A DNA stretch of 64,000 nucleotides from Bdellovibrionota bacterium. GTDB taxonomy: Bacteria; Bdellovibrionota_G; JALEGL01; DATDPG01. The stretch is from contig OY764265.1 of NCBI GenBank assembly GCA_963668355.1, positions 288,111 through 352,110 of the forward strand, written 5' to 3'. Both the position numbers and the translations under genes were made by a program. Under the pieces are notes generated by a model. The model made no database searches, was not told the DNA's origin, and was given only the letters and a program-made list of their open reading frames with translations. This document shows positions 15,087 to 58,105 of this stretch, in pieces. The number at the start of each line of letters is the position of its first letter. The stretch's first letter is position 1.

Positions 15087-15183
15087 GTCGTGGAGGTACA
15101 CGCTAGGGGAGATATGTTGGTTGGTGAACCGGTTGTGCGCCAAGAATAGTGAGCGCAATCCGTCGTCTTTTCATCACGACCAT

Positions 15184-16548: not shown

Positions 16549-19095
16549 TCATCGCTGCCATAGAATTCGCCCTTCTTCCAGTGGGATCGCAACGCCCTTG
16601 CTGTGGGGAATCACGCGCACTGTATAGTCGGTTGAAGGTCGAGCCGCGGATACAGACATGCGGTATACGTGGCTGCCCGAAGTGTCGGCCTGTTGACGAA
16701 CGTGGTCCATCTCATGGCGTACGGGGGGAGCACCCATGTCACCGTCGGCATAGAGCTCTACCCGCACCGCATTGGGGTCGAGATCATGAAGATCAATTTG
16801 GACCTCAAAAACGTGTTGTTCCTTGTGAGTCTCAACCTTCACTTCGCGAAACTGCAGCGCACTCCATTTCTGTTCTAGATTGTGCTGCCAATCGAGCATT
16901 TGCCTGCCGATTTGTCCGTTCTCGGCCATACGCAAACGGTAGGCGGCAGCGGCTGGCAGATAGTATCGATCCGTGTATTCGCGCACGGTGCGGTCCGCAG
17001 AAAAGCGCGGAGTCAACTGAGCCATGCTTTCCCGCATGCGTTTCATCCATGCGATGGGAATGCCATTCTTGTCTCGGGAATAGAATTCGGGAATCACTTC
17101 ATGTTCGAGCAGGTCATAGAGCGCGGCCGCTTCGGCCGCATCCCATTCGGGATCGTCGCCATGCTCTTGGCCGTCCCCCAACGCCCAACCCACTTCTGGT
17201 GTGTAGGCTTCTGCCCACCAACCGTCCAATTCCGAGAGGTTGAGGCCTCCGTTGACGAGTACCTTCATTCCGCTTGTTCCGCTCGCCTCCCAGGGTCTTC
17301 GTGGTGTGTTGATCCAAACGTCCACTCCCCGCACCAGTTGCTCCGTCAACCGCATGTCATAGTCGTTCAGAAAGGCGATATGGGGTCGGACCTCCGGGCG
17401 GCGAATGAACTGAATCCATGCTTGGATCAACGCTTGCCCCGGCCGGTCCTCCGGATGAGCTTTGCCGGCGATCATGAGTTGCACCGGACGATCGGGATTT
17501 GCCAAGATACGCAGCAAACGCGCCGGATCGTGCAGCAGTAAGTTGGGTCTCTTGTAGCTTGCAAAGCGGCGGGCAAAGCCCAGGGTTAGAGCTTGGGGAT
17601 TGAACAAATTTTTCGCCAGATCAATCTCCTCGGAAGACGCGCCGCAAGAGGTGAGCTGCCGTGACAATCGTTGGCGGGCGTATGTAACCAGAGACTTGCT
17701 GGCGGCGACACGAAACTGCCAGAGTCTGGTGTCGGAAACCTGCCGAATGTCCTGTTCCAAAGTTTCATTCGTCCCCAGCCAGCGGTCCTTGCCGGCGGCT
17801 TCCGTCCAAAGATCGTCAGCGGGAGCCGAATCCCAGGTCGGCATGTGGACACCATTGGTCACATGCCCGATAGGAATCTCTTCCTTGGGCCAGTGAGGAA
17901 AGAGCGGTTCGAAAATATGTCGGCTTACTTGGCCGTGCAAACGACTCACGCCGTTGACCGCACCGCTGCCGCGCACGGCAAGATAGGCCATGTTGAAACT
18001 CTCCGATGAGTCATTCGGGTTCTGCCGTCCCAGGGCCAGCAAATCATGAATGGTGATGCCAAGCTTTTCTTGAGCGTAGCGACCCAGGTATTGCTCAATC
18101 AGAGCCGGAGCGAAAAGGTCAAAACCCGCCTTTACCGCCGTGTGGGTTGTGAAAAGATTTCCCGCTCGGGTGACAGCCAGCGCAACATCAAAGGCCTGCT
18201 GCGCTTCTTCCATAAAACTCCGAGCCCTTTCCAACACGGCAAAGGCCGCATGACCTTCGTTTAAATGACAGACTTCCGGTTGGATGCCCAACGCACGCAG
18301 CAGTCGCCATCCGCCGATCCCGAGGAGCAGTTCCTGCTTGAGACGCAGCTCCGACCCTCCGCCATAAAGTTCGCTGGTAATTCCTCGATGAGTAGGAAAG
18401 TTCGCCGCGTCGTTGCTGTCCAGGAGGTAAAGCTTCACCCGACCCACCTGTACCTGCCAGGCACGAAGCCAGACCGCGTAACCGGGCAGGTCGATTTTAA
18501 GTCGCAACCATTCGCCATTCGCCTGCCGCAACGGTGTGATTGGTAACTGTCCAGGGTCGTTATAGGGATAGAGCGCCTGTTGCGCTCCGTTCTTGTCGAT
18601 GACCTGGCGAAAATAACCTTGCTGGTAGAGAAGTCCCACGCCGACCACCGGCACACCCAAATCGCCGGCAGCTTTGAGCTGATCGCCGGCTACGTTGCCC
18701 AACCCTCCCGAGTAGATGGGTAAAGCTTCACTCAACATGAACTCCATACTGAAATAGGCGACACAGGTGAGGGGACTCCGGGAATGCTTTCGTTGAAACC
18801 ACGCGGGCGCCTCCACGGCCTTCCGCCGGTTCTGCACCAGGTCATCAACTTTTTTATGAAAAACGGGATCAGCCATGACACGCTCAATCCGTTCGCGCGA
18901 GACCGTTTGAAGAACGACCCAGGGGTTATGCGTGATTTCCCATAACTCGGAATCAAGTTCTCGCCACACATGATCGGTGGCATGATTCCATGTGGAGCGC
19001 ATGTCCAAAGCCAGCTCGGCCAGGGAGTCGAACCCCTCAATCTCCGTGGGAAGAACATTATATAGAGGATGGTCGGCACGGGTCTGTTTGTTCAC
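16549..19095 (-). CDS. glgP: alpha-glucan (glycogen/maltodextrin) phosphorylase, GT35 family
   Basis: 848 aa. Has GGLGNVAGDQLKAAGDLGVPVVGVGLLYQQGYF and the large alpha-1,4-glucan phosphorylase family architecture. Confidence 0.9.
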   Translation of the reverse strand: MNKQTRADHPLYNVLPTEIEGFDSLAELALDMRSTWNHATDHVWRELDSELWEITHNPWVVLQTVSRERIERVMADPVFHKKVDDLVQNRRKAVEAPAWFQRKHSRSPLTCVAYFSMEFMLSEALPIYSGGLGNVAGDQLKAAGDLGVPVVGVGLLYQQGYFRQVIDKNGAQQALYPYNDPGQLPITPLRQANGEWLRLKIDLPGYAVWLRAWQVQVGRVKLYLLDSNDAANFPTHRGITSELYGGGSELRLKQELLLGIGGWRLLRALGIQPEVCHLNEGHAAFAVLERARSFMEEAQQAFDVALAVTRAGNLFTTHTAVKAGFDLFAPALIEQYLGRYAQEKLGITIHDLLALGRQNPNDSSESFNMAYLAVRGSGAVNGVSRLHGQVSRHIFEPLFPHWPKEEIPIGHVTNGVHMPTWDSAPADDLWTEAAGKDRWLGTNETLEQDIRQVSDTRLWQFRVAASKSLVTYARQRLSRQLTSCGASSEEIDLAKNLFNPQALTLGFARRFASYKRPNLLLHDPARLLRILANPDRPVQLMIAGKAHPEDRPGQALIQAWIQFIRRPEVRPHIAFLNDYDMRLTEQLVRGVDVWINTPRRPWEASGTSGMKVLVNGGLNLSELDGWWAEAYTPEVGWALGDGQEHGDDPEWDAAEAAALYDLLEHEVIPEFYSRDKNGIPIAWMKRMRESMAQLTPRFSADRTVREYTDRYYLPAAAAYRLRMAENGQIGRQMLDWQHNLEQKWSALQFREVKVETHKEQHVFEVQIDLHDLDPNAVRVELYADGDMGAPPVRHEMDHVRQQADTSGSHVYRMSVSAARPSTDYTVRVIPHSKGVAIPLEEGRILWQR

Positions 19096-20768
19096 GATTT
19101 CTCCCTTACGAATGTCTTGGACTCAATACTCTCCAGGGCATGACTGACGACAGTCTGAGCTTCCGCCACGATGCGACGAAGATGATCGGCACCCAGAAAG
19201 CTCTCCGCATAGATCTTGTAGATGTCTTCTGTCCCGGACGGACGGGCCGCAAACCATCCGTTTTCGGTCATGACTTTGAGCCCGCCGATCGGAGCGTCGT
19301 TTCCAGGTGCGCGGGTGAAACACGCTTGAATCTTTTCACCGGCTAAGTCGGTGAGCTTCACCTGATCCGGCGAGAGATTCTTCAACAACTCCTTTTGTCC
19401 TGGCGTGGCTGGCGCTTCGACGCGGTCATAAAACGGCTCCCCGAACTCGTGCGTGAGTTCGCGATACAGTTGACCGGGGTCTCGATCCATCCGCGCCGTG
19501 ATTTCGCCGGCGAGCAAGGCCGGGACGATTCCGTCTTTGTCGGTGGTCCAGACACTGCCGTCCATACGCAGGAAAGAGGCTCCCGCACTCTCTTCGCCTC
19601 CGAAGCCAAGCGAGCCATCGAGTAAACCGTCGACAAACCACTTAAACCCGACCGGCGTCTCATAGAGTTTTCGACCCACCTTGGCGGTGACACGATCGAT
19701 CATCTGGCTGCTCACCAACGTCTTGCCCACGGCAGCCTCCCTGGACCAGTTAGGTCGGTGTTGAAAGAGATAGAAGATGGCCACCGAAAGGTAGTGATTG
19801 GGAGGAAGTAGTCCGGTGCTAGGGGTGACAATGCCGTGCCGATCGTGGTCGGTATCGCAAGCAAAGCCGATGTCGAAACGGTCCTTCAGTTCGATGAATT
19901 TTTGCATGGCGTAGGGTGATGATGGATCCATGCGGATCTGGCCGTCCCAATCCACCGTCATAAAACGGAACGTCGGGTCGACGGTCTCGTTCACGATCGT
20001 GAGGTTCAACCCGTAGCGTTCGGCAATCGGTTCCCAGTAGTGGATCCCGGCGCCGCCGAGTGGATCGACCCCCAGGTTGCTCTTCGCGGCGCGAATGATG
20101 CCCATGTCAATTACATTTCCAAGGTCGTTGACATAGGCATTGAGATAATCGTGCCGGTGCGTCGTAGGGGCGCGGAGGGCTCTTTCGTAGGGAATTCTCT
20201 TCAAGCCCGGAAGGTCATTTTCAAGAAACTCGTTGGCCTTGGTTTCAATCCACCCGGTGATGCCCGATTCTGCCGGCCCGCCGTTGGGGGGATTGTATTT
20301 GAACCCGCCGTCATGGGGCGGGTTGTGTGACGGCGTGATGACAATCCCGTCGGCAAAGCCCGACGTGCGTCGGCGATTGTACGTGAGAATCGCGTGGGAA
20401 ATGACAGGCGTTGGCGTGTATTCATCTCCCTTCGCGAGCATGACTTCCACGCCGTTTGCCGCCAGAACCTCGAGCGCGGTGGCCAGAGCCGGCACGGAAA
20501 GAGCATGCGTGTCCATGCCGAGAAACAGTGGGCCACCAATATTCTTCTGCTTCCGGTAGAGGCAAATGGCCTGACTGATGGCCAGGACATGTTGTTCGTT
20601 GAAGGCCTTTTCAAACGCGCAACCGCGGTGGCCCGAGGTGCCGAAGGCCACCCGTTGTTCGGGGACGAAGGGATTCGGTACTTCCGTATAATAAGCCGTA
20701 ACCAGTTTCGGTACGTCTACCAGCATCGATGCTTCGGCCGACTTTCCTGCATAGGGGCTTACGGTCAT
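19092..20768 (-). CDS. pgm: phosphoglucomutase (alpha-D-glucose phosphate-specific)
   Basis: 558 aa. Active-site TPSHNPPHDGGFKYN and the Mg loop FDGDGDR-like region. ATGA overlaps on both sides. Confidence 0.9.
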   Translation of the reverse strand: MTVSPYAGKSAEASMLVDVPKLVTAYYTEVPNPFVPEQRVAFGTSGHRGCAFEKAFNEQHVLAISQAICLYRKQKNIGGPLFLGMDTHALSVPALATALEVLAANGVEVMLAKGDEYTPTPVISHAILTYNRRRTSGFADGIVITPSHNPPHDGGFKYNPPNGGPAESGITGWIETKANEFLENDLPGLKRIPYERALRAPTTHRHDYLNAYVNDLGNVIDMGIIRAAKSNLGVDPLGGAGIHYWEPIAERYGLNLTIVNETVDPTFRFMTVDWDGQIRMDPSSPYAMQKFIELKDRFDIGFACDTDHDRHGIVTPSTGLLPPNHYLSVAIFYLFQHRPNWSREAAVGKTLVSSQMIDRVTAKVGRKLYETPVGFKWFVDGLLDGSLGFGGEESAGASFLRMDGSVWTTDKDGIVPALLAGEITARMDRDPGQLYRELTHEFGEPFYDRVEAPATPGQKELLKNLSPDQVKLTDLAGEKIQACFTRAPGNDAPIGGLKVMTENGWFAARPSGTEDIYKIYAESFLGADHLRRIVAEAQTVVSHALESIESKTFVREKS

Positions 20769-21467
20769 ACTTGTTCCTTGGGAGCCGTGCGATGGAGCAA
20801 TGCCTCTCGTTCGAAATGAACAAGATCACCGATGTGCTCAATCGAAATATCAGCGCGCGGAAATGTGGTCACCACCTTGCGGTCGAGAGCATAATGTCCC
20901 TGGCGGGGCCAAACCGTGGTTAACCTCTCGCCCCAAAATTCCTTCATGGCTGTGAGGATTCGAAGTTTATCGTCAACCATCACGTAATGGCTCGCTGGAT
21001 AGCGCTTTTCGATTTCATCGAGCATCTGCTCTTTATGAATGTAAATCAGCACACGGCCCTCAACTGCGTCCCAGAGTCCCGATCGTTGAACCTTCCGCGG
21101 CTGGAAGACGGCGTCGCCATCGGTAAGAATGACCGTCGGTCCCCAGAGCCCAGCGCGCGTAAGAACTTTGAAAGCATCAGGGTATAAACGGTCCGCAAAG
21201 GGGTAATCCATCAGATACGAAGACATGGTCAAGAGTCGCGGGTCGAACCGTTCTTCGAGGCGGTAGCGCTGCAGAGTTCCCAGATGGTCCGAGTACCCAC
21301 ACTCAGCGTGCAACTCTTCAAAAATGGCCCAGTACCGTTCTTGAACGTCAGCCCCGAACTCATGCTCAAGATGGCTCTTAAGATCATTCTGTACGACATC
21401 GTTGTCGAGCAACGTGTTGTCAACATCGAAAAGAAATACCATGTTTTCCTTTGCCATCATCCCAGAA
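20765..21467 (-). CDS. HAD-superfamily hydrolase (phosphatase), first gene of the HAD-pgm-glgP operon
   Basis: DxDxT motif FLFDVDNTLLD near the N-terminus. The ORF-track extension LWGVEPPRSTPPSSG is translation of the upstream hairpin element and is unlikely to be real. Confidence 0.75.
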
Positions 21468-21470
21468 CTC

Positions 21471-21545
21471 GGGGGAGTGGAGCGGGGGGGCTCCACTCCC
21501 CAAAGCACAAAACTATTGTTTCGTGCTCATTTCGGGCGAAAGGAC
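21471..21545 (-). promoter_or_regulatory. structured leader element B, copy 1: an 8-bp hairpin with a (A/C)ATAG loop followed by an 11-bp GC hairpin (GGGGAGTGGAG / CTCCACTCCCC)
   Basis: About 85% identical to 27113-27186. Sits immediately 5' of the HAD start codon. Wobble and compensatory changes in hairpin 1 preserve pairing between the two copies. Confidence 0.45.
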
Positions 21546-21592
21546 AGGCGCTCCATTTCTTGAATCCAGCCAATGTATATCTTGGTACCCCA

Positions 21593-21644
21593 CCGTCGAC
21601 GATAAGGAAGTTTCTTCGTATATCATCGGAAAAAGTGACATATC
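21593..21644 (-). promoter_or_regulatory. copy 2 of the bipartite motif, upstream of element B and the HAD-pgm-glgP operon
   Basis: Sequence is ccgtcgacgataaggaagtttcttcgtatatcatcggaaaaagtgacatatc. Confidence 0.5.
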
Positions 21645-21697
21645 GAGAGGACCGGGCCTAGTGGCTTCACGGTCCTCCTGAGGTTGATATGGCCTGT

Positions 21698-22147
21698 CTA
21701 TGAGACTTTGACCTCAATCGCCTTGGGCTTGGCTTTTTCGCTCTTCATGAGCCGAACATTCAATACACCATCCTTGAACTCGGCTCGGACGTTACCTTCT
21801 TCTACATTTTCCGGCATCGTGAAGGTTCGAAGGAAGGATCCGTACAAACGCTCGACGCGATGAAACTTCTTCCCCTTCTCTTCCTTTTCCTGATTCCGCT
21901 CGCCCTGAATCCGAAGGATTCCGTTATCCACCGAAACTTTGACATCATCCTTTTTCACCTCCGGTATCTCCACTTTGAGAATGTATTCCTCCGGGTTCTC
22001 GATAATATCAACGGTCGGCGTCCAATCCGGAGCGGTAAGCATTTCTTTACCTGTTTCCGCACGAACCACGGGTCGACCAAAGGCTCGATTTAGGCGATCG
22101 TTCATTTCTTCCAATTCATGATATGGATTCCAACGAGTTAATTGCAT
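21698..22147 (-). CDS. Hsp20/alpha-crystallin family small heat-shock protein
   Basis: 149 aa, alpha-crystallin domain, ends ...AKPKAIEVKVS. Confidence 0.9.
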   Translation of the reverse strand: MQLTRWNPYHELEEMNDRLNRAFGRPVVRAETGKEMLTAPDWTPTVDIIENPEEYILKVEIPEVKKDDVKVSVDNGILRIQGERNQEKEEKGKKFHRVERLYGSFLRTFTMPENVEEGNVRAEFKDGVLNVRLMKSEKAKPKAIEVKVS

Positions 22148-22244: not shown

Positions 22245-22445
22245 TTATTTGGATTTGTTTGGCGTTTTTGTAACGTCGCGTTCCGCCGCGAACCAGTCCT
22301 CTTGCTCATGGCCGGATCCAAAGCCGCGCTTTTCCGCCTTGTAATAGGCATCTTTTGCCACCTTGGCGTGGCAGTCTGTATGGGTCTGACAGTCTTTTTC
22401 GTGTGGCTGCTTTGTTTTTGAGCCAGTCTTTGGTTTTGTTTTCAT
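22245..22445 (-). CDS. DUF2934-family small protein (paralog of 28888-29091)
   Basis: 66 aa. HAKVAKDAYYKAEKRGFGSGHEQEDWFAAERDV matches the DUF2934 pattern AYxxxExRGxxxGxxxxDWxxAE. SD AAAGGAG. Confidence 0.6.
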   Translation of the reverse strand: MKTKPKTGSKTKQPHEKDCQTHTDCHAKVAKDAYYKAEKRGFGSGHEQEDWFAAERDVTKTPNKSK

Positions 22446-22552
22446 GGGCTATTTCTCCTTTTGAATACGTATTTCATTCAATTTAAACATTTGTTCTCGA
22501 AATTGTTTCGCCATAGTCGAGGAAGCCTCTATTTACAGGCAACCTCAACCAC

Positions 22553-22602
22553 CAACTATGAGGAAGTTTCATCGTATAGCGTCGGAAAATACGACGTATA
22601 GA
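22553..22602 (-). promoter_or_regulatory. copy 3 of the bipartite motif (divergent region between DUF2934 and 22847)
   Basis: Sequence is accaactatgaggaagtttcatcgtatagcgtcggaaaatacgacgtatag. Shares an extended upstream box TTTACAGGCAnCnTCAAnCACC with copy 1. Confidence 0.5.
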
Positions 22603-22846
22603 ACGCCGATCACGGAGTTACAGCTCATCTCGAGAGTACTTGAGAAAAGGCATAATTGAAGGCCTTGATATCGCTTTCGGACATCTCGAGGCTATAGCTT
22701 CGTGAAACAAGATCAACTCCAACCTATCGCTTTTTACGACCCTACGCGTTTGAATTTCCAAATAGTCAATAGACCCCTGGGACACGTAAAAGGAAACCTG
22801 ACGATTGCTGTCTTATGAGACTTGTAGAAGAAAGTAGGAGTACGTT

Positions 22847-24174: not shown

Positions 24175-24738
24175 TTAAGGCGTGGTTTTTTCGGCTGGGG
24201 CCTTGGAAGAAAGATCCTCCAAAATCGTCATTTGAAGTTCCTGAATTTCCAAAAGTCGTTGCCACTGATGAGATACCAATCGGTCGAGTTTGTCGTTGAT
24301 CACGCCAACTTCAATTTCCGTTTTTAGGTTGATGCGATAGTCATTTTCGTCACGCTGGCGATCCCGCGCTTCCAATCGATTCTGGCTCATCAAAATGATT
24401 GGGGCCTGTAGGGTGGCCAAGGCGGAAAGAATTAAATTCAAAAAGATATAAGGATAAGGATCGAAGGGGTGACGAAGAATCAGAAGAGAATTAAGCAGAA
24501 CCCATCCTAACAACACGCTGCCAAAAAGCATAAGGAAGGTCCAACTCCCTCCAAAACTGGCGACGTGATCGGCCAGACGCTCTCCAAGCTTTAGTTTTCC
24601 CTGAGATTTTTCTTCTGCATTCGACGCTGCAGTTTCTCGTTCATGCAAAGCTCGTGTCATTTCATGATTGAGTTCGGATAGTTCCTCCTTTTCTTTTCGA
24701 AGAATTTGGAGGAGTTGTTCGTTTTTGCTGGATGTCAT
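24175..24738 (-). CDS. DUF1003-family membrane protein
   Basis: DPYPYIFLNLILSALATLQAPIILMSQNRLEARDRQRDENDY is the DUF1003 signature. Confidence 0.7.
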   Translation of the reverse strand: MTSSKNEQLLQILRKEKEELSELNHEMTRALHERETAASNAEEKSQGKLKLGERLADHVASFGGSWTFLMLFGSVLLGWVLLNSLLILRHPFDPYPYIFLNLILSALATLQAPIILMSQNRLEARDRQRDENDYRINLKTEIEVGVINDKLDRLVSHQWQRLLEIQELQMTILEDLSSKAPAEKTTP

Positions 24739-25094
24739 GATGGATTGGGCTCGGCAGGGCGATGAATTGCCCTATGATTTTTGCCATCGCGTTTTCGTCC
24801 TTGCGTGTTCTCGATCAATCTGGCCAGTTTGTCGAGGGCGCCGTCAATGGCATGATCCAGAGTTGTGGCCTGATGAGTTACCGCGATGGGTTGGCTCTTC
24901 TTGAGACGCGCTTCCATCATGCACCGCTTATCGTGCGAACCGATCTTGGGACCGTTTTCGTCACTGAGGTGAATCTCCACACGGGTGATGTGTTCGCTGA
25001 AGCGGCTCAGGGTGTTTTCGACGGTGTCATGGACATAAGTGCCCAGTGCCTCGGAAACATCGATACTATGGTCAGAATTGATTAAGACTTGCAT
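24735..25094 (-). CDS. hpf: ribosome hibernation promoting factor / RaiA family protein
   Basis: MQVLINSDHSIDVSEALGTYV...ITRVEIHL...AIDGALDKLARL has the HPF/YfiA fold signature. ATGA overlap with the DUF1003 gene. Confidence 0.7.
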   Translation of the reverse strand: MQVLINSDHSIDVSEALGTYVHDTVENTLSRFSEHITRVEIHLSDENGPKIGSHDKRCMMEARLKKSQPIAVTHQATTLDHAIDGALDKLARLIENTQGRKRDGKNHRAIHRPAEPNPS

Positions 25095-25115
25095 GGGGAT
25101 CTCCTATCATGATCG

Positions 25116-27108
25116 CTACCCGGGATTAGTGGCCATCCCGTAAAGAATATGCAGAGTGAAAAGAAGGGAAATCTGTGCTTCTCGGAATAACGTTCCAAAT
25201 ACACGGTGGAGCGGAATGTGAAACCATTTTCGTTCATTCCAGCGCTTCGCCATGGCCTGCCAAAAACAATCCAGATCTTGGCGCGTGTAAACTTTGTTGA
25301 TGGACAAGGCCGGATACCACTTGGTCCAGAACAAGCGAAGTTTGGAGGGAACCTTTAGAGACGGAAGTTGCACTTTGGTGCGAAGATGGGCCAACTGGAT
25401 GTCGGCCAACTTCAAACTACCACGCGCCGTTGCACAGATTCGATTGATTTCCTGTGCAATCAATCGTTCTGCTTGCGTGGACTGGCGGGTCTGCAACCAG
25501 ACCTCTTGCATCTCTCTCACCACGCCAAACATTCGGACAAGCTGCACGGATACTTCTTTTATACGCATTTTGAAGAACTCCCACCAACCCTGCACAGGAT
25601 ATCCCGGGCGGCGATCTTTTCGCTTTTTCAACTGAAACAAACCACACATCATGGGGTGGCGTTTCTCAGTCTGGATCGAATTCTTGCACCACATGAAACG
25701 AACAAGATTGTTCCAATAATTTCGCTGCGAACTTCTTTGCAGAACCTTTTTCATGTTTTCGAGGCTGTAAAAGCTATGCCAGGCCTCGTGGTAAAGTTCC
25801 GTCCAGAGGCCATCCTTTAAATGAGGATGCCTGGTCACAGGATGATCCGAATCGTACAGATTGTAATCCGGATTCATCCATTCGCCGCGTCGAACCATTT
25901 CCATGTGGTCCTTCGAGCCGGGCAAGGGCATGAGCATGAAAAATGAGACATGATCCGGCCGAACCTCATTTTCAAGGTAGTCGAGATCTCGGCGGACCGA
26001 CTCGGGCGTATCGTTTGGGAAGCCGATGATGTAACTCGCGTGGACGGAAATCTCGCGGCTTCGGTAGGCTTCGATGAGTTGGGGGTATTCATCAACGTGG
26101 TTCTGGTTTTTTCCCGTCGCTTTGAGGTTGTCTGGATTAATGCTCTCCATGCCAATGAAGACATTGAGGCAACCGGCACGACGCGCTTTCTCGATAAAGT
26201 TTGGAATTTTCCAGGAGAGAACATCCGCCTGCATCATGAAGCTTACCGGAATCTTTTCTTTCTCTCGCAGGTGGATGAGGAGATCAAAGATCGGTTCCCA
26301 ATTTTTATTGCGAGCGAAGTTGTCATCGGTGAAGAAATAGAAGTTCACACCACGTTGGAGGTAATTGTCTCGCACGGCGGCCGCAATCCTCTCGGCCGAG
26401 CGATAGCGTACTTTCCGACCTTGCACATGGATGATCGTGCAAAAGCCGCACTCGAAGGGGCAGCCGCGGCCACAATCAATGGTACCGAAATTAGAGGCCA
26501 CAAATTTACGTAGATAGTCTTTGCGAACGATGGGCAGGGGTTGATCATAGAGATCTGGTTTGCGGCTGACAAAATCGTAGAGGGGTTCAAGGTTATCGGT
26601 GAGGGTGTCTCGAAGAAGATCCCCCCAGGTATCCTCCACCTCCCCTTTGACCACAGTGACGCCCAGATCCAAGAGTTCCTGAACCTCAGCCGGAATTTCG
26701 GGGCTGAGTTCGAGCGCGCCGCTAACGTGAAACCCGCCGATCATCACCGTAAGCCCCGCATGACGAAACTCTCGCGCCAGATCGACGGCACGGGGAAACT
26801 GATTGGTTTGAACGCCGGCGAGGCAGACCACCGTTTTCGTGTGTCGATTGCGATGCGAGCGGCAGATGCGTCCAACGGGAATATGTTCTACCGTTTCATC
26901 CAGGAGGTGAAGCTTGATTTTTAGGGATGGCCCGAACGCCTTCTTTTGCCTTAGGTCTTCGGTCAGACCGGCCAGACAGGCCAAGGTATTGCTTGGTAAT
27001 ACACCTCGCCAGTGGCGAACCACATAACCGTCGTCGTCATAACGGGAGGGTTTGATTAGGTAGAGTTGAAGCCTCTTGATTCCGGAATATGTTTTCATTG
27101 ATGAACTC
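25116..27108 (-). CDS. B12-binding domain radical SAM protein (class B, long form with a C-terminal extension)
   Basis: N-terminal cobalamin-binding Rossmann-like region, then CGRGCPFECGFC (CxxxCxxC), then a ~250-aa C-terminal domain. The start MSSSMKTYSG is at 27108 or 27096. Confidence 0.8.
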
Positions 27109-27112
27109 ATGA

Positions 27113-27186
27113 GAAAAGGGGGAGTGGAGGGGGGACTCCACTCCCCAAACACGAAACTATGGTCTCGTGCCCATTTCGGGCGATAT
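27113..27186 (-). promoter_or_regulatory. structured leader element B, copy 2, between the OmpA-like gene and the radical SAM gene
   Basis: Sequence is agggggagtggaggggggactccactccccaaacacgaaactatggtctcgtgcccatttcgggcga. In the gene orientation the GC hairpin is followed by CUUUUCUC. Confidence 0.45.
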
Positions 27187-28632
27187 GACGACATCAATTC
27201 GCCGATTCATGGCTCGGCCTTCCGTCGTGGTATTGGGCGCCACCGGTTTGGCGGGTCCGTAACCGACCGAGACGATTTGGGCATTCGTCAAGGTGCGATT
27301 GGCTAGGAAATATTCCTTCACGGCATCTGCACGGGAAAGGGACAAATGCTCGTTCATGGCGGCTGACCCGGTCGTATCCGTATGACCTTCAATGGTCACT
27401 TGCGGCTGTCCGAAGGTGCGGATGGCATGCTGCACCTTGCTTAACAGCGTGTAGTTGTCCGGCATAATTACTGATTTGCCCACCGGAAACCGCATGGCTT
27501 TGAGTCGAATCAGAAGTTGGTCGCCTTGTTTGTAGACCTCGGCATCTTTAGGGTCAAAGTACGAACGCACTTCGCCATAAAGCTTATTAAAACGCTTCTC
27601 CGCTTCCAGTCGAGCCGTGGCCTCTTGTTCGGTTTTGCTGGTGCCTTCTAACGAGGCAATTTTTTGATGAAGATCGGCGTTCGTCATTTCCTGACTCGTG
27701 GTTTTTTCGGCTAGATACATCCGGTCTTTTTGTAGGCCGACAATCGTTCCGTTGATATTTTCCACTTGCGTCTTGAATGTCTGGTTACGCATGTCGGGGG
27801 CAAATAACGTGTTCGCAATTTGGGTCAGCATGTTTTCCATCCAAATCGCCGATTGTTCCGGCGATTTCTTGCGCAGGGCCACGCTTTGGTCGAGCATGTA
27901 TTTCAAACGTTCGGCGTGAAAGATCGCTTCGTTGGCTTTCTTAAGCATTTCCTCTCGGTTGTATCGATTTTGGGAAATGAACGAATCGGCTTCAGCCAAC
28001 TTCTTCTTGGCGAGAGCTAACGTTTCCGGCACCACCTTCTTAGCCTCTCGTTTTTCGGCCTCACCGATAAGGTCACGGGCTTGGCCGAGAGCCTTTTCTT
28101 TAATGGCTCGAAGTTCGAGGTTGCGAAAGCTTTGGGTGACGCGAGGTTGGTTGTTTTTAGCCCATTCGAGATTGTTGTCTTCAATTTCTTTGGTCAGTTT
28201 TTGAAAACTGGCTTCGGCTGCGTCATAGTCTTTACCGAGCGAAGGCGCTCCAGCCGCTTGGGCGTCGTCGCGTGCGGCGATCACGTTTGGCAACGCGGTT
28301 CGGGCCACTCTGGCCATTTCATTGGCTTGCTTAAGCTCTGCCCGTCCCTGACTGACCTCGGCAAAGATGTCATCGAGGCTGCTTCCTTTTTTCTGAAGCT
28401 GCTTGGCCTTAGCTAGTGACGCTTCGGCTTTGGTATATGAAGTGGGCGCAAGTACATTTACTTTCTCGGTTCGTGCCTGATGGACAGCCGTATCCAAAGA
28501 AGAAATTTGTTCGCTGGGATTTGCGGTGGAGGAAATTTTGGTCACATTCAGACTTTTTCCTCCGCAACTCATCAACACGAGAGATGCAAAAAGCATCATC
28601 GTGCGGTTAAAAAGCTGGGTTTTCATGGTCAT
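27157..28632 (-). CDS. OmpA-family lipoprotein with a long coiled-coil region
   Basis: Lipobox LVLMSCGG, about 330 aa of coiled coil, and a C-terminal OmpA domain (GHTDTTGSAAMNEHLSLSRADAVKEYF...NRRIDVVI). Confidence 0.8.
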   Translation of the reverse strand: MTMKTQLFNRTMMLFASLVLMSCGGKSLNVTKISSTANPSEQISSLDTAVHQARTEKVNVLAPTSYTKAEASLAKAKQLQKKGSSLDDIFAEVSQGRAELKQANEMARVARTALPNVIAARDDAQAAGAPSLGKDYDAAEASFQKLTKEIEDNNLEWAKNNQPRVTQSFRNLELRAIKEKALGQARDLIGEAEKREAKKVVPETLALAKKKLAEADSFISQNRYNREEMLKKANEAIFHAERLKYMLDQSVALRKKSPEQSAIWMENMLTQIANTLFAPDMRNQTFKTQVENINGTIVGLQKDRMYLAEKTTSQEMTNADLHQKIASLEGTSKTEQEATARLEAEKRFNKLYGEVRSYFDPKDAEVYKQGDQLLIRLKAMRFPVGKSVIMPDNYTLLSKVQHAIRTFGQPQVTIEGHTDTTGSAAMNEHLSLSRADAVKEYFLANRTLTNAQIVSVGYGPAKPVAPNTTTEGRAMNRRIDVVISPEMGTRP

Positions 28633-28726
28633 GTTCCTTTCGGCACACCGAAACCTGGAAAAACAATTTTTTCAGGGAGAGGTGCTCCATTTTGTGAATC
28701 GACTAAACGTATATCTTGATCCCAGG

Positions 28727-28780
28727 CCGTCGACGATAAGGAAGTTTCAGCCCACTATGTCGAAAAAACCGACCTATTCA
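28727..28780 (-). promoter_or_regulatory. copy 4 of the bipartite motif, upstream of the OmpA-like gene
   Basis: Sequence is ccgtcgacgataaggaagtttcagcccactatgtcgaaaaaaccgacctattc. Embedded in a ~150-bp segment duplicated from the hsp20 3' region. Confidence 0.5.
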
Positions 28781-28887: not shown

Positions 28888-29091
28888 CTATTTTAAGAGG
28901 ATTCCCTTTTTCGTGATGGCACGTTCCGCGGTGAGCCAGTCTTCTAACTCACGGCCGCCGGCAAAACCGCGGTTTTCCGCTTCAAAGTAGGCAGCTTTCG
29001 CGATCTTCGCGTGGTCATCAGCTTGCGTTAGGTTGGCTCGGCCTTTGGTTGAGTTGTTTGTTTTCGCTTCGTTTTTTCGTTTTATATACAT
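28888..29091 (-). CDS. DUF2934-family small protein (paralog of 22245-22445)
   Basis: HAKIAKAAYFEAENRGFAGGRELEDWLTAERAI. Confidence 0.55.
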   Translation of the reverse strand: MYIKRKNEAKTNNSTKGRANLTQADDHAKIAKAAYFEAENRGFAGGRELEDWLTAERAITKKGILLK

Positions 29092-29310: not shown

Positions 29311-29390
29311 AGTTTCCTCCGTTTAGGGACGGGTTGCGCTCGTGTCAAACGTGATCTGAGCTAGGAGATGATTCATACATTCCAAACAAT

Positions 29391-29445
29391 CTGGCGACTA
29401 TTCGGAAGTTTAAGTGTGCATTGTCGAAAAAAACGACGTATAGCA
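29391..29445 (-). promoter_or_regulatory. copy 5 of the bipartite motif (LysR / small-ORF divergent region)
   Basis: Sequence is ctggcgactattcggaagtttaagtgtgcattgtcgaaaaaaacgacgtatagc. Confidence 0.45.
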
Positions 29446-29450
29446 GGGGC

Positions 29451-30353
29451 ATGGAATGGCTCAACTACCACCATCTTTTATATTTCTGGGTTGTAGCCAA
29501 AGAGGGAAGTATCGTGGCGGCGAGTCGGCAGTTGCGTCTCGCCCATCCTACCATTAGCGGTCAGATCCATCGGCTTGAGGAAATGCTTGGGCAAAAATTG
29601 TTTACGAAAAAAGGACGGAATATCGTTCTGACCGAAGAAGGCCGAGTGGCCTTTCGTTACGCCGAAGAAATTTTCACACTTGGGAACGAGTTTTTAGACA
29701 CGGTCAAAGGTCAGCCGAGCAGTTGGCCTTTGCGTTTGGTTGTGGGGGTTTCGGATGCCCTTGCCAAGTCCGTCGTGTACAGAATTCTGCAGCCTGTATT
29801 CAGTCTGGACAAGGATGTTCAAGTGGTCTGTCGCGATGATCGTTCGATCAAAGAATTCATGGGGGATTTGGCCTTGGGTGAAGTGGATGTCGTGCTTTCG
29901 GATGCCCCGGCGGGTCCCGGTTCGCCCGTGCGGGCTTTTAGCCATCTTCTTGGTGAGTGTGGCACAGCCTTTTTTGCGGCCCCCGCGCTGGCCAACAAAC
30001 TTCGGCGCAAATTTCCGCAGTCGCTCGATGGTGCCTCTTTTCTAGTGCCAGGCATTGATTCTACGCTTCGCCGAGCGTTGCGGGGATGGTTTGAGAGGCT
30101 GGATATCCAGCCAAAGATTATCGCCGAATTGGATGACGCGGCGCTGGCCAAGATTTTTTGTGAGGCTGGGTTGGGCGTGATGGCGGCCCCTGATGTTAGT
30201 GAGAAGGAAGTGAAGGCGCGCTACCATGTGCAGGTGGTTGGTCGGTCAGAAAAGGTGCGGCAACAAGTTTTTGCGATTTCGCTTGAACGAAAAATCAAAC
30301 ATCCTGCGGTGATCACGATTTGTGAGGCGGCACGGAAGAGCGTTTTTTCTTGA
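29451..30353 (+). CDS. LysR-family transcriptional regulator
   Basis: N-terminal HTH (LNYHHLLYFWVVAKEGSIVAASRQLRLAHPTISGQIHRLEE) plus a LysR substrate-binding domain. The ORF-track start at 29421 overlaps the motif, so ATG 29451 is preferred. Confidence 0.85.
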   Translation: MEWLNYHHLLYFWVVAKEGSIVAASRQLRLAHPTISGQIHRLEEMLGQKLFTKKGRNIVLTEEGRVAFRYAEEIFTLGNEFLDTVKGQPSSWPLRLVVGVSDALAKSVVYRILQPVFSLDKDVQVVCRDDRSIKEFMGDLALGEVDVVLSDAPAGPGSPVRAFSHLLGECGTAFFAAPALANKLRRKFPQSLDGASFLVPGIDSTLRRALRGWFERLDIQPKIIAELDDAALAKIFCEAGLGVMAAPDVSEKEVKARYHVQVVGRSEKVRQQVFAISLERKIKHPAVITICEAARKSVFS

Positions 30354-30753
30354 GTTTGGTTGATCGTTTGGACGCAACTTTTCTTTTTTTCTTAGGGGCG
30401 CGTTTAGTAGGTAGGGAATTTTTTTTAGTCACAGGTTTTGATATTCTCTCCTGACGTTCTTGTTCTAGTTTAATGATGCGAGCCACAGAGCGAGCCGCAC
30501 GATCCACGGCTCGATTGAAGGCGGTAAACACATCAGGATCAGTTTCTTGCACATTCACCGAACGGGCCAAGCCCACTTGGATGCGGCAGCGTTTTTCCGC
30601 GGGGCTGTGATGGACATTCGAGTTGGAAAGGTGGACGGTAACATGGTCGATGTTTTCAGCGAATCGGCTTAAGGCAAAACCAAGTCTAAGTTCAACATGT
30701 GAACGCAGAGTCTTGGTGACTCTGATGTCACAACTTTGTATTTGAATCTTCAT
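30313..30753 (-). CDS. HPF/RaiA-like ribosome-associated protein with a Lys-rich C-terminal tail (second paralog)
   Basis: MKIQIQSCDIRVTKTLRSHVELRLGFALSRFAENIDHVTVHL... has the HPF-like N-domain, followed by a KKKRKVASKRSTKLKKKR tail. The 3' end overlaps the LysR gene 3' end by about 40 nt. Confidence 0.6.
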   Translation of the reverse strand: MKIQIQSCDIRVTKTLRSHVELRLGFALSRFAENIDHVTVHLSNSNVHHSPAEKRCRIQVGLARSVNVQETDPDVFTAFNRAVDRAARSVARIIKLEQERQERISKPVTKKNSLPTKRAPKKKRKVASKRSTKLKKKRSSVPPHKS

Positions 30754-30955
30754 GGCAAAGATACGTTACGCTTCCTGGAGATGCCCGAATATAAGGAAAT
30801 GACAGGACGAAACGTTGTAATATCCGTCATGGGAAATCCGAACGGAAACAGCCCACGGCAGCGTTCGCCACCGCAGGCTGTGTTGTCACGCTACGAATTG
30901 ATCTTACGCGTAGGGGGAAGGGGTGGTAAGGATCCGTAGAGTGTGATCAAGCAAT

Positions 30956-31156: not shown

Positions 31157-31223
31157 CTTAATTCTCCTTGAAAACGATTTGGTAGTTGTATTTGAATGTC
31201 CTGTATATCGATGATGGCGCTCA

Positions 31224-31268
31224 ATAAATATGAGGAAATATGAAAGAAAGGCGTCGACAAAAACAACG
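31224..31268 (-). promoter_or_regulatory. copy 7 (weaker) of the bipartite motif, upstream of the CsbD-like gene
   Basis: aatatgaggaaatatgaaagaaaggcgtcgacaaaaacaac. Retains the TTTTTGTCGACG half and a TTTCCTCAT box at 13-nt spacing. Confidence 0.3.
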
Positions 31269-31498
31269 TGTATGAAAACGTGCCTGTTGTTCGTTTTTTG
31301 CCAACCCGGCTGAGCAAAAAACACCAAAGGCATTCTTGAAATCGCAGCCTCCGATGGGAGCCCGGAAACCCCAGCTTATTTGCTGGATCATGCCTACGCA
31401 GTTGCACCTGATGTTCTTAAAGCCGCACGCAATGCACAGAATTTATAAGTCGGGGGGGCAGGTAGGGACCTGCCCGCGACTTACAGTTTCTCGCATTC

Positions 31499-32503: not shown

Positions 32504-32552
32504 CACATCTCCTTAAGTTTCATAACTAGTGTTTTTATACTTCTGGAGTTGA

Positions 32553-32610
32553 CCATCGACCATGAGGAAGTTTCATCGTGTAGCGTCGCAAAAAGCGACA
32601 TGATTATTCA
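32553..32610 (-). promoter_or_regulatory. copy 6 of the bipartite motif (SPFH / GGDEF divergent region)
   Basis: Sequence is ccatcgaccatgaggaagtttcatcgtgtagcgtcgcaaaaagcgacatgattattc. Confidence 0.5.
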
Positions 32611-34025: not shown

Positions 34026-35216
34026 ATGACAAACCAAACTATAAATGTACTTCAAGTGGCGACCCTCAATCGGCCTATTCGAAAAGACTTGGGCTACGGA
34101 CCCATCGAAACAGTGATTTACAACATCGATCAAGGATTGCACGAGTTGGGGCATCGTTCGATTGTGGCTTGCTCAGGAGACTCTTGTGTATCCGGCGAGC
34201 GATATACAACCATCAAAAAAAGTTTTAGCGAATACTGGAGTAAGAATACGTCCGCCCAAAAAGAGAGCAGTCGTCGGCACCTCACCATGTCGCTCGAGAG
34301 AGCCAGCCGAGGTGACATTGATATCATCCATATGCACGACGCCGCGATGGTCGAATACATTTTTAAAGGAGTGTTAAAAAGCCCGGTTCCCATCGTCATG
34401 ACCCTTCACGTTCCCGCGGAAGAAAAGGGTTCGTTCAAGCGCTGGAATGAAACCTTAACTCCTGCCTCGAAAGTATTTTTCGTCCCCATCAGTGAATTCC
34501 AAAAAAACCAGAATCATGGCTTAGTCAACCTCCAGGAGGTGATCCACCATGGAATTGATATAAAAGACTACCCTTTCAACGACGCCCCCCAGAACGATAA
34601 CTATCTGTTCACGATTGGAAGAGTCACGCAGGACAAAGGACAGGACAAATCCATCGAAGTCGCTAAGCGCAGCAATTCGAGACTTGTTATTGCCGGAAAT
34701 GTTCAGAATAAATCAAAAGACAGGGCATTCTTTAAAACGTTAGAGCCTTCGATCAACCTTTCGATTGATGCAAGCGAAAATCCCGGCGACGACAACTATT
34801 ACGACGAGGTCATCAAACCGGTTTTGGAATCCGGCCTACAGATCATTTATATTGGAGAAATCAATAGCGCCCAAAAAATGCATTGGTATCGCCATGCGCA
34901 AGCTACCCTATTTCCCATTCAGTGGGGAGAACCGTTCGGCTTGGTCTTAGTCGAATCGATGGCCTGTGGCACGCCGGTCCTAGCTCTCAATCGAGGGTCT
35001 GTACCTGAAATTATCCTAGACCGAGAAACGGGTTTCATCGCCGATTCCATCGATGAAATGGTCGAACATGTACAAGACATTTCTCGCATTGACCGTCATA
35101 TCTGTCGGCTCCATATCCAAGACCATTTTTCGATCGCGAGCATGGCAAAAAAATACTCACAATTGTACCAACAGATTCTGGTTGAAAGGGCTTCATGCCA
35201 AAAGACATCCCCGTAA
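34026..35216 (+). CDS. GT4-family glycosyltransferase
   Basis: 396 aa. EPFGLVLVESMACGTPVLA is the GT4 E-x7-E region. Confidence 0.85.
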   Translation: MTNQTINVLQVATLNRPIRKDLGYGPIETVIYNIDQGLHELGHRSIVACSGDSCVSGERYTTIKKSFSEYWSKNTSAQKESSRRHLTMSLERASRGDIDIIHMHDAAMVEYIFKGVLKSPVPIVMTLHVPAEEKGSFKRWNETLTPASKVFFVPISEFQKNQNHGLVNLQEVIHHGIDIKDYPFNDAPQNDNYLFTIGRVTQDKGQDKSIEVAKRSNSRLVIAGNVQNKSKDRAFFKTLEPSINLSIDASENPGDDNYYDEVIKPVLESGLQIIYIGEINSAQKMHWYRHAQATLFPIQWGEPFGLVLVESMACGTPVLALNRGSVPEIILDRETGFIADSIDEMVEHVQDISRIDRHICRLHIQDHFSIASMAKKYSQLYQQILVERASCQKTSP

Positions 35217-56032: not shown

Positions 56033-58105
56033 ATGCTGTCCAAAGCCCCCCAAATCCTGAAACAACTCAATGACTCAGTGCGTACAAGATTGATCGGCCT
56101 TCCTGAAAGCACGCCCTTTTCTCCCCCCGCTCGCCCTCATCTCCATAAAGCCGCACCGCCCTTAGAAACAGAACCGGTCGCTGAACTTTCGGCCGCGCTC
56201 AAGAAAACCCTTACCCACTTGCATACGCTGCAACATGAAGCGGGTTATTGGGAAGCCGCCGTGTTTGACAACCCCACCATTACTTCTGAGTACGTCATGT
56301 TTCTCCAATTCCTGGGAATTTTGGATGAAGACATTCGGCTCCGGGCCAAAAATTATTTATGGGAAACGCAAACCAATCGGGGAGGTTGGACCCTTTATCA
56401 CGGCGGACCCGAAGAACATTCAGCCACCATCGAGGCGTATTTCACACTGAAGCTCTGCGGGGTCGATCAAAATGATCCACGCATGATCCAAGCCAAAAAA
56501 CTGATTTTGGAAAAAGGAGGAATTGAAACCTCCCGCATCTTTACCAAAATCAACCTGGCCATGTTCGGAGAATATTCCTGGGAAAAAATTCCCTGCATCA
56601 GCCCCGAACTCATGCTCCAACCTCGAAAAACACCTTTTAATATTTATGAATTTTCCAGTTGGTCCCGAGCGGTCATTATTCCGCTCTTGATCATCTTTGA
56701 TCAAAAACCGACGGCTCCTTTGAAGGAAAACGAAAAACTTGGAGAGTTATGGGAGGGCTTGACCCAACCTTCGAGACGAAAGCAAATCCAAGAATTTCTT
56801 TTGGACAAGAAATGGAACCTCGAAAAGATCTTTCGACTCGTGCAAGCCGGTCTCTTCATCTACGAAAAAAGTCCCATCAAACCGCTTCGGCAAAAAGCCT
56901 TAAAAATGGCTGAGAAATGGATTTTGGAGCATCAAGATCCCAATGGAAATTGGGGCGGCATTTTTCCGGCCATGACCAACGCGCTGGTCGCCTTGAAACT
57001 TAGAGGATACCCTCTTTCGCATCCCCGAATGGTCAAAGGGTTAAGCATGTTACGATCCTTTGCAGACGAGACTGAATCAACCATTCGCGTTCAGTCGACA
57101 GTTTCTCCGGTATGGGACACCGCCATCACAACCTATGCCATGCAAGAAACCGGCGTTCCCCCAACCGATGTCCGAGTCCAAAAATCCGTACAATGGCTTT
57201 TGAATAAACAGATTACACAGGTTTTGGGAGACTGGAGATTTAAGGCTTCCTCCAATACACCTCCGGGAGGATGGCCCTTTGAACACGAGAATGACCAATA
57301 TCCCGATTTGGATGATACGGCCCTGACCATTCTGGCCCTACTTCCCTCCGAACAATTAAAAAAATCCGACACCCATTTAAGAAGCGCCATTGACCGCGGC
57401 ATTGAATGGATGCTCGGCATGCAAGGTTCAGATGGTGGATGGGGCGCTTTTGATCGAGACAATAACCGACAAATCATCAACCAAATTCCGTTTTCGGATT
57501 TAAAATCTTTATTGGACCCGAGCACCCCAGATGTCACGGCCCACGTCATGGAAGCCTTAGGCGCGGCTCATTTTGATCTCCAAAGCAAACCTATTCAAAA
57601 GGCGCTAAGATTTCTCCGCACCACCCAAGAAGAAAACGGTTCATGGTTTGGTCGATGGGGGGTCAATTATATTTATGGCACCGGTGCGGTCTTAAGTGCG
57701 CTTCATGTCCTAGGGGTCGACATGAACCAAGACTACATCCAAAAGTCCCGAAACTGGCTCCTTAGCCTTCAAAACGCAGACGGTGGATGGGGAGAATCAT
57801 GTGCCTCCTATGATGTGAACCACTACGTTCCCCTCGGCTATTCGACGGCCAGTCAAACAGCATGGGCCATTTTAGCCTTATTGGCTTGCCCACCCGAAGA
57901 TGCCACGCCTCTTGAAGAAGGGGTCCGATATCTTTTGAAAAATCAAACCGAAGATGGCGAATGGAAAGAGCCTGAGTGGACGGGAACCGGATTCCCCAAA
58001 CACTTTTACCTTCGGTACGACTATTACCGCCTGTATTTTCCTCTGCTTGCCTTGGGAAGATATGCGGAGACTCAGACCCACAAGCATTCGTCGCCAAGCA
58101 AATAA
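56033..58105 (+). CDS. shc: squalene-hopene cyclase
   Basis: 690 aa. DxDDTA motif (YPDLDDTALTIL) and multiple QW repeats. Confidence 0.9.
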   Translation: MLSKAPQILKQLNDSVRTRLIGLPESTPFSPPARPHLHKAAPPLETEPVAELSAALKKTLTHLHTLQHEAGYWEAAVFDNPTITSEYVMFLQFLGILDEDIRLRAKNYLWETQTNRGGWTLYHGGPEEHSATIEAYFTLKLCGVDQNDPRMIQAKKLILEKGGIETSRIFTKINLAMFGEYSWEKIPCISPELMLQPRKTPFNIYEFSSWSRAVIIPLLIIFDQKPTAPLKENEKLGELWEGLTQPSRRKQIQEFLLDKKWNLEKIFRLVQAGLFIYEKSPIKPLRQKALKMAEKWILEHQDPNGNWGGIFPAMTNALVALKLRGYPLSHPRMVKGLSMLRSFADETESTIRVQSTVSPVWDTAITTYAMQETGVPPTDVRVQKSVQWLLNKQITQVLGDWRFKASSNTPPGGWPFEHENDQYPDLDDTALTILALLPSEQLKKSDTHLRSAIDRGIEWMLGMQGSDGGWGAFDRDNNRQIINQIPFSDLKSLLDPSTPDVTAHVMEALGAAHFDLQSKPIQKALRFLRTTQEENGSWFGRWGVNYIYGTGAVLSALHVLGVDMNQDYIQKSRNWLLSLQNADGGWGESCASYDVNHYVPLGYSTASQTAWAILALLACPPEDATPLEEGVRYLLKNQTEDGEWKEPEWTGTGFPKHFYLRYDYYRLYFPLLALGRYAETQTHKHSSPSK

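Follow-up and report, generated by a model that had tools for sequence, protein, structure and literature searches.

The described proteins that come closest to the enzyme considered here are radical S-adenosylmethionine (SAM) enzymes. They include AprD4, the 1,2-diol dehydratase of apramycin biosynthesis; the class B methyltransferases TsrM, TokK, CysS, MgmA and OxsB; and HpnJ, HpnR, HpnP and BchE, which belong to the same COG1032-type superfamily. AprD4, which we take to be a cobalamin-independent member of the class-B-type architecture, is encoded in an antibiotic gene cluster together with its partner AprD3. Tes/GDGT-MAS and the bacterial Mss are radical SAM enzymes as well; to our knowledge, Tes has no N-terminal Rossmann domain. 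Here, we describe a radical SAM gene in a 64,000-nt stretch of contig OY764265.1 from a Bdellovibrionota bacterium (hereafter the window, whose positions serve as coordinates throughout). The gene lies in a row with genes for an OmpA-like lipoprotein, a ribosome hibernation factor (HPF) and a DUF1003 membrane protein.

The reading that we favour, with moderate confidence, is that the gene encodes a stand-alone class-B-type radical SAM enzyme, which in the window genome only is placed behind a stress-regulated lipoprotein gene and before the HPF and DUF1003 genes. AprD4 has its gene cluster, whereas the family of the window protein has no conserved neighbours.

The radical SAM protein and its family

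Four open reading frames (ORFs), read from the letters and from Pfam and NCBIfam profile scans, run head to tail on the minus strand in the order OmpA-like, radical SAM, HPF and DUF1003 (Table 1), just as an earlier note on this DNA had described them. The radical SAM protein is identical to database protein P0001, and its start, MKTYSG, agrees with those of P0001 and the homologues. It carries the motif C213-PFE-C217-GF-C220 (CX3CX2C), the three cluster cysteines of which are invariant in 45 family members that are 30–71% identical to the window protein, and it scores 64.1 bits against Pfam Radical_SAM (PF04055), the gathering cut-off being 29.5. An AlphaFold model (mean pLDDT 81.8, pTM 0.82) superposes on many radical SAM structures and places a Rossmann-type domain at residues 9–176, in an N-terminal domain of about residues 1–200, ahead of the radical SAM barrel, which is the class-B domain order; a helical C-terminal region follows, with lower confidence at residues 540–610. 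The window protein is a genuine radical SAM enzyme with a class-B-type architecture, and the assignment to class B that had been proposed for it holds for the two-domain layout, as does the description of a large uncharacterised C-terminal part, ~220 aa with no known domain.

This C-terminal region (about residues 440–660) is strongly basic, with a pI of 10.6 and 38 K/R against 14 D/E, and is rich in Trp. Residues 382–660 matched neither DUF4070 nor any other Pfam family at E ≤ 10, and no transmembrane segment was found in the C-terminal region, the highest hydropathy over 19 residues being 1.1–1.6. Neither a membrane anchor nor amphipathic C-terminal helices gained support; the hydrophobic moments were no higher than those of control helices elsewhere in the protein. 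The search for domain fusions in longer relatives gave only Radical_SAM and weak sub-threshold matches. A second Fe-S cluster is unlikely and was rejected: C41 and C79 are invariant among the close homologues, but not across the wider family, in which only the three cluster cysteines are invariant.

The family extends far beyond the window. A word-indexed search returned 7,949 cluster matches, the best 120 of which are ~650 aa long and 64–71% identical, and at E < 1e-30 an exhaustive search retrieved 493 cluster representatives (clustered at 50% identity), with a conserved core (residues 1 to ~550) and a variable tail. Identity to proteins of Acidobacteriota and of soil metagenomes is 63–71%. 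Nearly all genome matches are metagenome-assembled genomes (MAGs) of Terriglobia or 'Acidoferrales', with a few from Verrucomicrobiia, Polyangiaceae, Eremiobacteraceae, Acidimicrobiia and others. In the MAG GCA_043804515.1 (locus L003), which is among the closest relatives found, the radical SAM protein is 69% and TopA 66% identical to the window counterparts, so the radical SAM protein has diverged about as much as TopA. Because the third-position G+C content of the radical SAM gene (GC3 = 0.59) is similar to that of the neighbouring genes, and because the two proteins diverge equally from the L003 genome, the sequence data argue for vertical descent of the gene over a recent transfer.

We think it rather likely that we are dealing with a large, slowly evolving family whose members are stand-alone genes without conserved partners and which has neither a curated model nor a characterised member. 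Searches of the literature for DUF1003 with HPF and for acidobacterial lipid radical SAM enzymes yielded no paper on this family. Because it is so large, evolves slowly and has no curated model, characterised member or conserved context, this orphan family, which is abundant in Acidobacteriota-rich soils and peat, would be a reasonable target for enzymologists and lipid geochemists.

Could the row of genes in the window nevertheless form a functional unit? The earlier note had proposed a pairing of the radical SAM enzyme with HPF and envelope proteins, and had let it hinge on whether the adjacency is kept in relatives. We compared 162 loci (80 from genomes, which are the best matches and all MAGs, 80 from metagenomes, and 2 further contigs; 1.79 Mb in all, with flanks of 6–8 kb). 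When the OmpA-like, HPF and DUF1003 proteins of the window were searched against these loci with tblastn, there were no matches; that is, 0 of the 162 homologous loci carry such a neighbour, and the adjacency is, as far as current data allow, not conserved. The 146 distinct clusters of neighbouring proteins were assigned to 132 Pfam families, none of which occurred more than twice. In one acidobacterial clade (Acidoferrales; L008, L015, L021–L028 and ~20 others), the radical SAM homologue is the gene immediately before tilS-hpt-ftsH-folP and is co-directional with it, tilS being the downstream neighbour in ~25 loci; a PstS-like gene is found upstream on the opposite strand in the same loci. 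In the clade nearest the window protein, the gene stands between a beta-eliminating lyase gene and a deoxynucleoside-kinase-like gene, and in L003 it has a Fic/MarR gene on one side and an RRM gene on the other, with no OmpA-like, HPF or DUF1003 genes nearby. The gene after the homologue in L003 (10140–10460, plus strand) encodes a 106-aa RRM-type RNA-binding protein. From the DUF1003 side, 0 of 3 DUF1003 loci have an HPF or radical SAM neighbour, and the nearest DUF1003 homologue (locus L083, a 1.3-kb Logan contig) overlaps the end of an acetate kinase gene.

Because the family adjoins different genes in every other genome examined, the position of the radical SAM gene beside HPF looks like a local accident of gene order rather than a conserved functional unit, and the arrangement in the window genome gives no reason to think that ribosomes or the envelope are acted on by the enzyme. 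If gene order reflected function, radical SAM chemistry would gain a new link, to the hibernation of ribosomes or to remodelling of the envelope; this link is unsupported, because the order radical SAM-HPF-DUF1003 has been seen only in the window genome so far.

The two-hairpin element and expression of the gene

The stop codon of the OmpA-like gene is separated from the radical SAM ATG by 58 nt. The radical SAM stop codon and the HPF ATG are 21 nt apart, with a GGAG Shine-Dalgarno sequence in the gap, and the HPF stop and DUF1003 start share a 4-nt ATGA overlap. Overlapping stop and start codons, which had been claimed for both of these last junctions, are thus present at the second and not at the first. 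Given the 21-nt gap and the 4-nt overlap, the radical SAM, HPF and DUF1003 genes probably make up one transcript. On the other hand, the OmpA-like gene would be coupled at best loosely to the three genes behind it, because the intervening element resembles an intrinsic terminator. Of the single stress operon proposed earlier, the stress-type surroundings stand, but an operon of all four genes is doubtful with a terminator-like element after the OmpA-like gene.

The structured element that had been reported directly before the radical SAM gene is real and consists of two adjacent hairpins (Table 1), which fold far better than shuffled sequences (z = −5.85). The loop of hairpin 1 contains the OmpA stop codon. 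Hairpin 2 forms a perfect inverted repeat of 11 nt, begins 10 nt after that stop codon and lies 21 nt before the radical SAM ATG; its 11-bp stem has 8 G-C pairs and encloses a 6-nt loop, and CUUUUCUCAU follows. With its G+C-rich stem-loop, the U-run directly behind it and its location at the 3′ end of a gene, it has the features of an intrinsic terminator, and the element is the best terminator-like site in the 10 kb scanned (21.5–31.5 kb).

An exact-pattern search found only this one copy of the hairpins, and gapped BLAST found a second (Table 1). The second copy lies in the 5′ leader of an operon for a HAD protein, phosphoglucomutase and glycogen phosphorylase, between a site of the shared upstream motif described below (21588–21642) and the probable start at 21441; hairpin 2 of this copy is not followed by a U-tract, and the copy folds with z = −4.58. 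This HAD leader (the region 21400–21700) is a composite of the OmpA upstream region (28838–28676, 72% identity) and the OmpA 3′ end with its hairpins (27189–27118), the latter part being the last 30 nt of the OmpA-like gene and the two hairpins. It looks like a duplicate of the OmpA cassette from which the 1.5-kb coding sequence is missing. Translation of the HAD protein probably begins with the ATG at 21441 (MVFLFDVDNT) and not with the GTG at 21508. Because the second copy sits inside the leader of a motif-bearing operon, transcription can evidently pass such an element, and the copy before the radical SAM gene probably attenuates transcription rather than blocking it.

Might the element be a dedicated regulatory leader of the radical SAM operon, such as an attenuator or a protein-binding RNA, and not merely the OmpA terminator? 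We regard this as possible but doubtful. The second copy does belong to a genuine 5′ leader, with the motif on one side and the start of the HAD operon on the other; both copies fold well; hairpin 1 differs between them only by changes that preserve its pairs; and we found no promoter belonging to the radical SAM gene itself, a σ70-like one having been looked for in the 3′ end of the OmpA-like gene. However, these changes consist of transitions only and do not suffice for significance, the two copies are the only ones and apparently represent one duplicated cassette, there is no Rfam match, and the copy before the radical SAM gene has the U-tract that is typical of a plain intrinsic terminator. 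A riboswitch before the radical SAM gene was rejected: at the gathering thresholds, Rfam gave only two tRNAs in the whole window, and nothing reached E ≤ 1 in 26950–27450.

In the stand-alone reading that we favour, a [4Fe-4S] cluster on C213, C217 and C220 would cleave SAM reductively, and the resulting 5′-deoxyadenosyl radical would abstract hydrogen from the substrate at an unactivated C-H bond, as follows from the family. The N-terminal Rossmann domain might then hold cobalamin for methyl transfer or, as in AprD4, have another role. The OmpA-like gene has the motif in front of it and the terminator-like two-hairpin element at its end, and the radical SAM-HPF-DUF1003 transcript would most likely be fed, at a reduced level, by partial read-through of that element from the OmpA promoter.

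Several points weigh against this account. No promoter was identified for the radical SAM gene and no Shine-Dalgarno sequence was found before its start codon, so its expression, and the route to it, are what we infer; the absence of a Shine-Dalgarno sequence and the 21-nt distance of the start codon from the stem suggest that translation would be low. The U-tract after the hairpin is interrupted (CUUUUCUC), so the element need not terminate transcription efficiently. Cobalamin binding, plausible as it is, is neither backed nor ruled out by the sequence. Furthermore, the fact that the gene is packed so closely with those for HPF and DUF1003, in a stress island under common regulation, could reflect a lineage-specific functional recruitment, and the databases hold no close relative of the window organism with which to test it, the nearest TopA being 69% and the nearest DUF1003 protein 67% identical.

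Cofactor and substrate

The N-terminal domain is the part that is best conserved in the family, with the motifs YDDDGY, GVQTNQFPRA and GE-x-E; Y20, R103 and the pair G121-G122 are invariant in it, and H124 is nearly so. Neither the whole protein nor residues 1–200 matched the Pfam B12-binding family (PF02310), even at E ≤ 10, so the label 'B12-binding' given to the protein in the earlier note can be kept at the level of the fold but not at that of the Pfam profile. In the structural ranking, AprD4 is nearest, followed by the cobalamin enzymes MgmA, TsrM, CysS and TokK, and five of the seven best matches are cobalamin enzymes. We consider cobalamin use by the radical SAM protein plausible, with a chance that we put slightly above even.

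An AprD4-like enzyme that needs no cobalamin, with a Rossmann domain that would not bind B12 and a radical dehydration, rearrangement or other non-methylating reaction, is in our view unlikely. AprD4 (PDB 6fd2) is the best match by sequence, profile and structure and shares with the window protein the N-terminal Rossmann domain, the radical SAM barrel and a single CX3CX2C cluster; the missing PF02310 match would suit an enzyme without cobalamin, as would the finding that the N-terminal domain, searched by itself, has no match among solved structures at E ≤ 10. The two proteins are only ~20% identical, and AprD4, at 457 aa, is without the 220-aa basic C-terminal region. Against the reading, the AprD4 NCBIfam model gives 51 bits against a cut-off of 500, the conserved N-terminal domain keeps GG, H and GE-x-E in the positions that they have in B12-binding domains, models of whole B12 radical SAM proteins (TIGR04013, TIGR04072, HpnR and MgmA) align into it, a distant family member (P0150) has a sub-threshold PF02310 match of 21.8 bits, and there is the preponderance of cobalamin enzymes among the structural matches. 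The class B methyltransferases, for their part, differ from the window protein by identities of 13–19%, by its lack of a PF02310 match and by a different C-terminal domain.

The curated NCBIfam cut-offs of the matched B12-type radical SAM families are 251–750 bits, and the window protein scores 49–69 bits. The weak matches include HpnJ, MJ_1487, PhpK, BchE, a ladderane-type lipid family, MgmA, AprD4 and HpnR, with scores, against cut-offs, of 69.1/577.6 for HpnJ, 48.7/650 for HpnR, 63.2/481 for BchE, 66.1/600 for PhpK and 61.6/360 for TIGR04072; no HpnP model is among the matches listed for the window protein. None of the 45 diverse family members passes any NCBIfam cut-off. On these curated cut-offs, orthology to HpnP, HpnR, HpnJ, BchE or DUF4070 proteins was rejected. 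Homology to Tes/GDGT-MAS was likewise ruled out by comparison of sequences, profiles and structures, which gave no specific similarity beyond the radical SAM core. The window protein also differs from MiaB and RimO: it has no TRAM domain, its family shows no conserved N-terminal cysteine triad for a second cluster, and TIGR00089 gives 37 bits against a cut-off of 251.

Which enzyme makes the membrane-spanning lipids of Acidobacteriota is an open question (PMC8941075, PMC13159169), and acidobacteria, in which mss is absent and Tes homologues are mostly absent too, must therefore reach iso-diabolic acid by another route (PMC13159169). Could the window protein be a membrane-lipid-modifying enzyme, which methylates hopanoids or fatty acyl chains or forms the C-C bond of acidobacterial membrane-spanning lipids, for remodelling of the envelope under stress? 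The required alternative route would fit, and so would the concentration of the family in Terriglobia and other Acidobacteriota, the envelope proteins beside the gene in the window, and the weak apolipoprotein-like amphipathic tails of distant family members. The weak best NCBIfam matches also include the ladderane-type lipid B12 radical SAM family, HpnR and HpnJ, which is the nominal best, and shc is indeed in the window, where the earlier note had placed it ~30 kb from the radical SAM gene. Nevertheless, we find this explanation improbable. The scores lie 8- to 13-fold under the HpnJ and HpnR cut-offs, and the difference from HpnJ, HpnR and BchE (49–69 bits against 481–650) is the same for the 45 family members; shc is 29 kb away and unlinked, and no hopanoid genes lie near the family elsewhere. 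No lipid-biosynthesis neighbour recurs in the 162 loci, the protein has no transmembrane segment and no C-terminal helices more amphipathic than the controls, and the best 80 genome matches, being all MAGs, have no cultured producer of iso-diabolic acid among them.

A true stress operon, in which the enzyme would modify rRNA, tRNA or a ribosomal protein during dormancy together with HPF, is quite improbable: the 21-nt gap to HPF and the HPF/DUF1003 overlap, the location within a co-regulated stress island, the very basic, Trp-rich C-terminal 220 aa, the downstream tilS in ~25 loci and RRM protein gene in L003, and an evolution as slow as that of TopA speak for it, but HPF adjoins the gene in 0 of 162 loci, the set of neighbours looks random, the linkage to tilS-hpt-ftsH-folP, a widespread string of housekeeping genes, is limited to one acidobacterial clade, the N-terminal cysteine triad of methylthiotransferases is absent, and Pfam searches with the whole protein and with its separated pieces at E ≤ 10 found no TRAM or other known RNA-binding domain.

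The stand-alone enzyme that we favour is highly conserved and is not set in any biosynthetic cluster, and both points speak for a substrate that is common in cells rather than for a secondary metabolite. A more far-reaching proposal is that the family performs an undescribed modification of such a molecule in soil and wetland bacteria and that in the window genome its gene became part of a dormancy regulon, where it follows a two-hairpin attenuator and is expressed with the hibernation factor. To this proposal we would give little credence as a whole; as targets, a membrane lipid (for example at the step that is missing from the acidobacterial route to iso-diabolic acid or to branched glycerol dialkyl glycerol tetraethers, brGDGT) or a component of translation would come into question.

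The surrounding stress-gene island

The reading of the surroundings as a stress-gene island is well founded, and the stress-flavoured setting that the earlier note had sketched can be kept: there are HSP20, two HPF paralogues, SPFH, two DUF2934 proteins and glycogen-catabolism genes, and there is a common upstream motif. The motif, found by comparing upstream regions, has the consensus GTCG-N-TTTTT-N-CGAC-N9-TGAAACTTCC-NNAT-N-GTCG. With up to 3 mismatches it has 6 matches in the window against 0 expected by chance, and a weight-matrix scan gave 8 strong and 2 weak sites, all within 2.3–32.6 kb (Table 1). The genes behind the strong sites are those for acetate kinase, a small lipoprotein-like ORF, the HAD-phosphoglucomutase-glycogen phosphorylase operon, a DUF2934-HSP20 pair, a 93-aa ORF, the OmpA-like protein, a second pair with a DUF2934 gene, and SPFH. 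Scans of the window found no copy ahead of either the radical SAM gene or the first of the two HPF genes, and 87 related loci gave no match. The motif fits a layout of −35 TnCGAC, a 17-nt spacer and −10 CCnnAT and may represent an alternative-sigma promoter or an operator; it matches no motif that could be named. A compact stress/dormancy island with one upstream motif, in which a promoter-plus-hairpin cassette has been duplicated, is of value in its own right.

Table 1. Positions of the genes, hairpin elements and motif sites in the window.
Feature	Position	Strand	Details
OmpA-family lipoprotein	27157..28632	−	491 aa; Pfam OmpA 69.4 bits, DUF4398 28.1 bits
Radical SAM enzyme	25116..27098	−	660 aa
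Short-form ribosome hibernation factor (HPF/YfiA family)	24735..25094	−	119 aa; Ribosomal_S30AE (PF02482) 46.9 bits, cut-off 23.7
DUF1003 membrane protein	24175..24738	−	187 aa; PF06210 122.5 bits; two hydrophobic segments
Two-hairpin element	27118..27189	−	hairpins at 27119–27172; folding −37.6 kcal/mol
Hairpin 1	27147–27172	−	
Hairpin 2 (candidate terminator)	27119–27146	−	
Second two-hairpin copy	21471..21545	−	87% identity over 75 nt to 27118–27189
Shared upstream motif of the OmpA-like gene (strong site)	28722..28776	−	~55 nt; ends ~98 nt before the OmpA-like start codon
Strong motif site	2343–2397	−	
Strong motif site	15034–15088	+	
Strong motif site	21588–21642	−	
Strong motif site	22544–22598	−	
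Strong motif site	22723–22777	+	
Strong motif site	29386–29440	−	
Strong motif site	32548–32602	−	
Weak motif site	30777–30831	−	degenerate copy just upstream of the second HPF paralogue
Weak motif site	31216–31270	−	inside a 125-aa ORF
Acetate kinase	790–2001	−	
Type III polyketide synthase (chalcone/stilbene synthase-like)	2481–3548	+	355 aa
HAD, phosphoglucomutase and glycogen phosphorylase operon	16549–21441	−	
HSP20	21698–22147		
DUF2934 protein	22245–22445	−	66 aa
DUF2934 protein	28888–29091	−	67 aa
LysR-type regulator	29421–30353	+	TTG start
Second HPF-family paralogue	30313–30753	−	146 aa
Glycosyltransferase (family 4) and GH15 glycoside hydrolase pair	34026–37165	+	
shc	56033..58105		

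The OmpA-like protein has a lipobox (LVLMSC) at the N-terminus, then a long helical stretch of the DUF4398 type and, at the C-terminus, an OmpA domain that binds peptidoglycan; its NCBIfam matches, to YiaD, YfiB and LptF, are all sub-threshold. The HPF protein carries the S30AE domain, scores 37.9 bits with TIGR00741, slightly under the cut-off of 40.9, and has as its best match among solved structures the ribosome-bound factor of chain 7m4z_v (E = 1.5e-19). The second HPF-family paralogue, 5.6 kb away, is 32% identical to the first, and two hibernation-factor genes within 6 kb are unusual.

Each of the two DUF2934 genes lies downstream of a copy of the motif, and HSP20 follows one of them. 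The LysR-type regulator gene is divergent from the row of the small ORF, DUF2934 and OmpA-like genes, and its start overlaps the motif site at 29386–29440. The type III polyketide synthase gene is divergent from that of acetate kinase, with the motif between them. Acetate kinase, whose homologue adjoins the nearest DUF1003 relative, itself carries the motif in the window, and members of the motif regulon seem to be shuffled between relatives. The island is flanked by the glycosyltransferase and glycoside hydrolase pair and by the glycogen phosphorylase, phosphoglucomutase and HAD operon, an arrangement which suggests that carbohydrate-reserve metabolism belongs to the same response.

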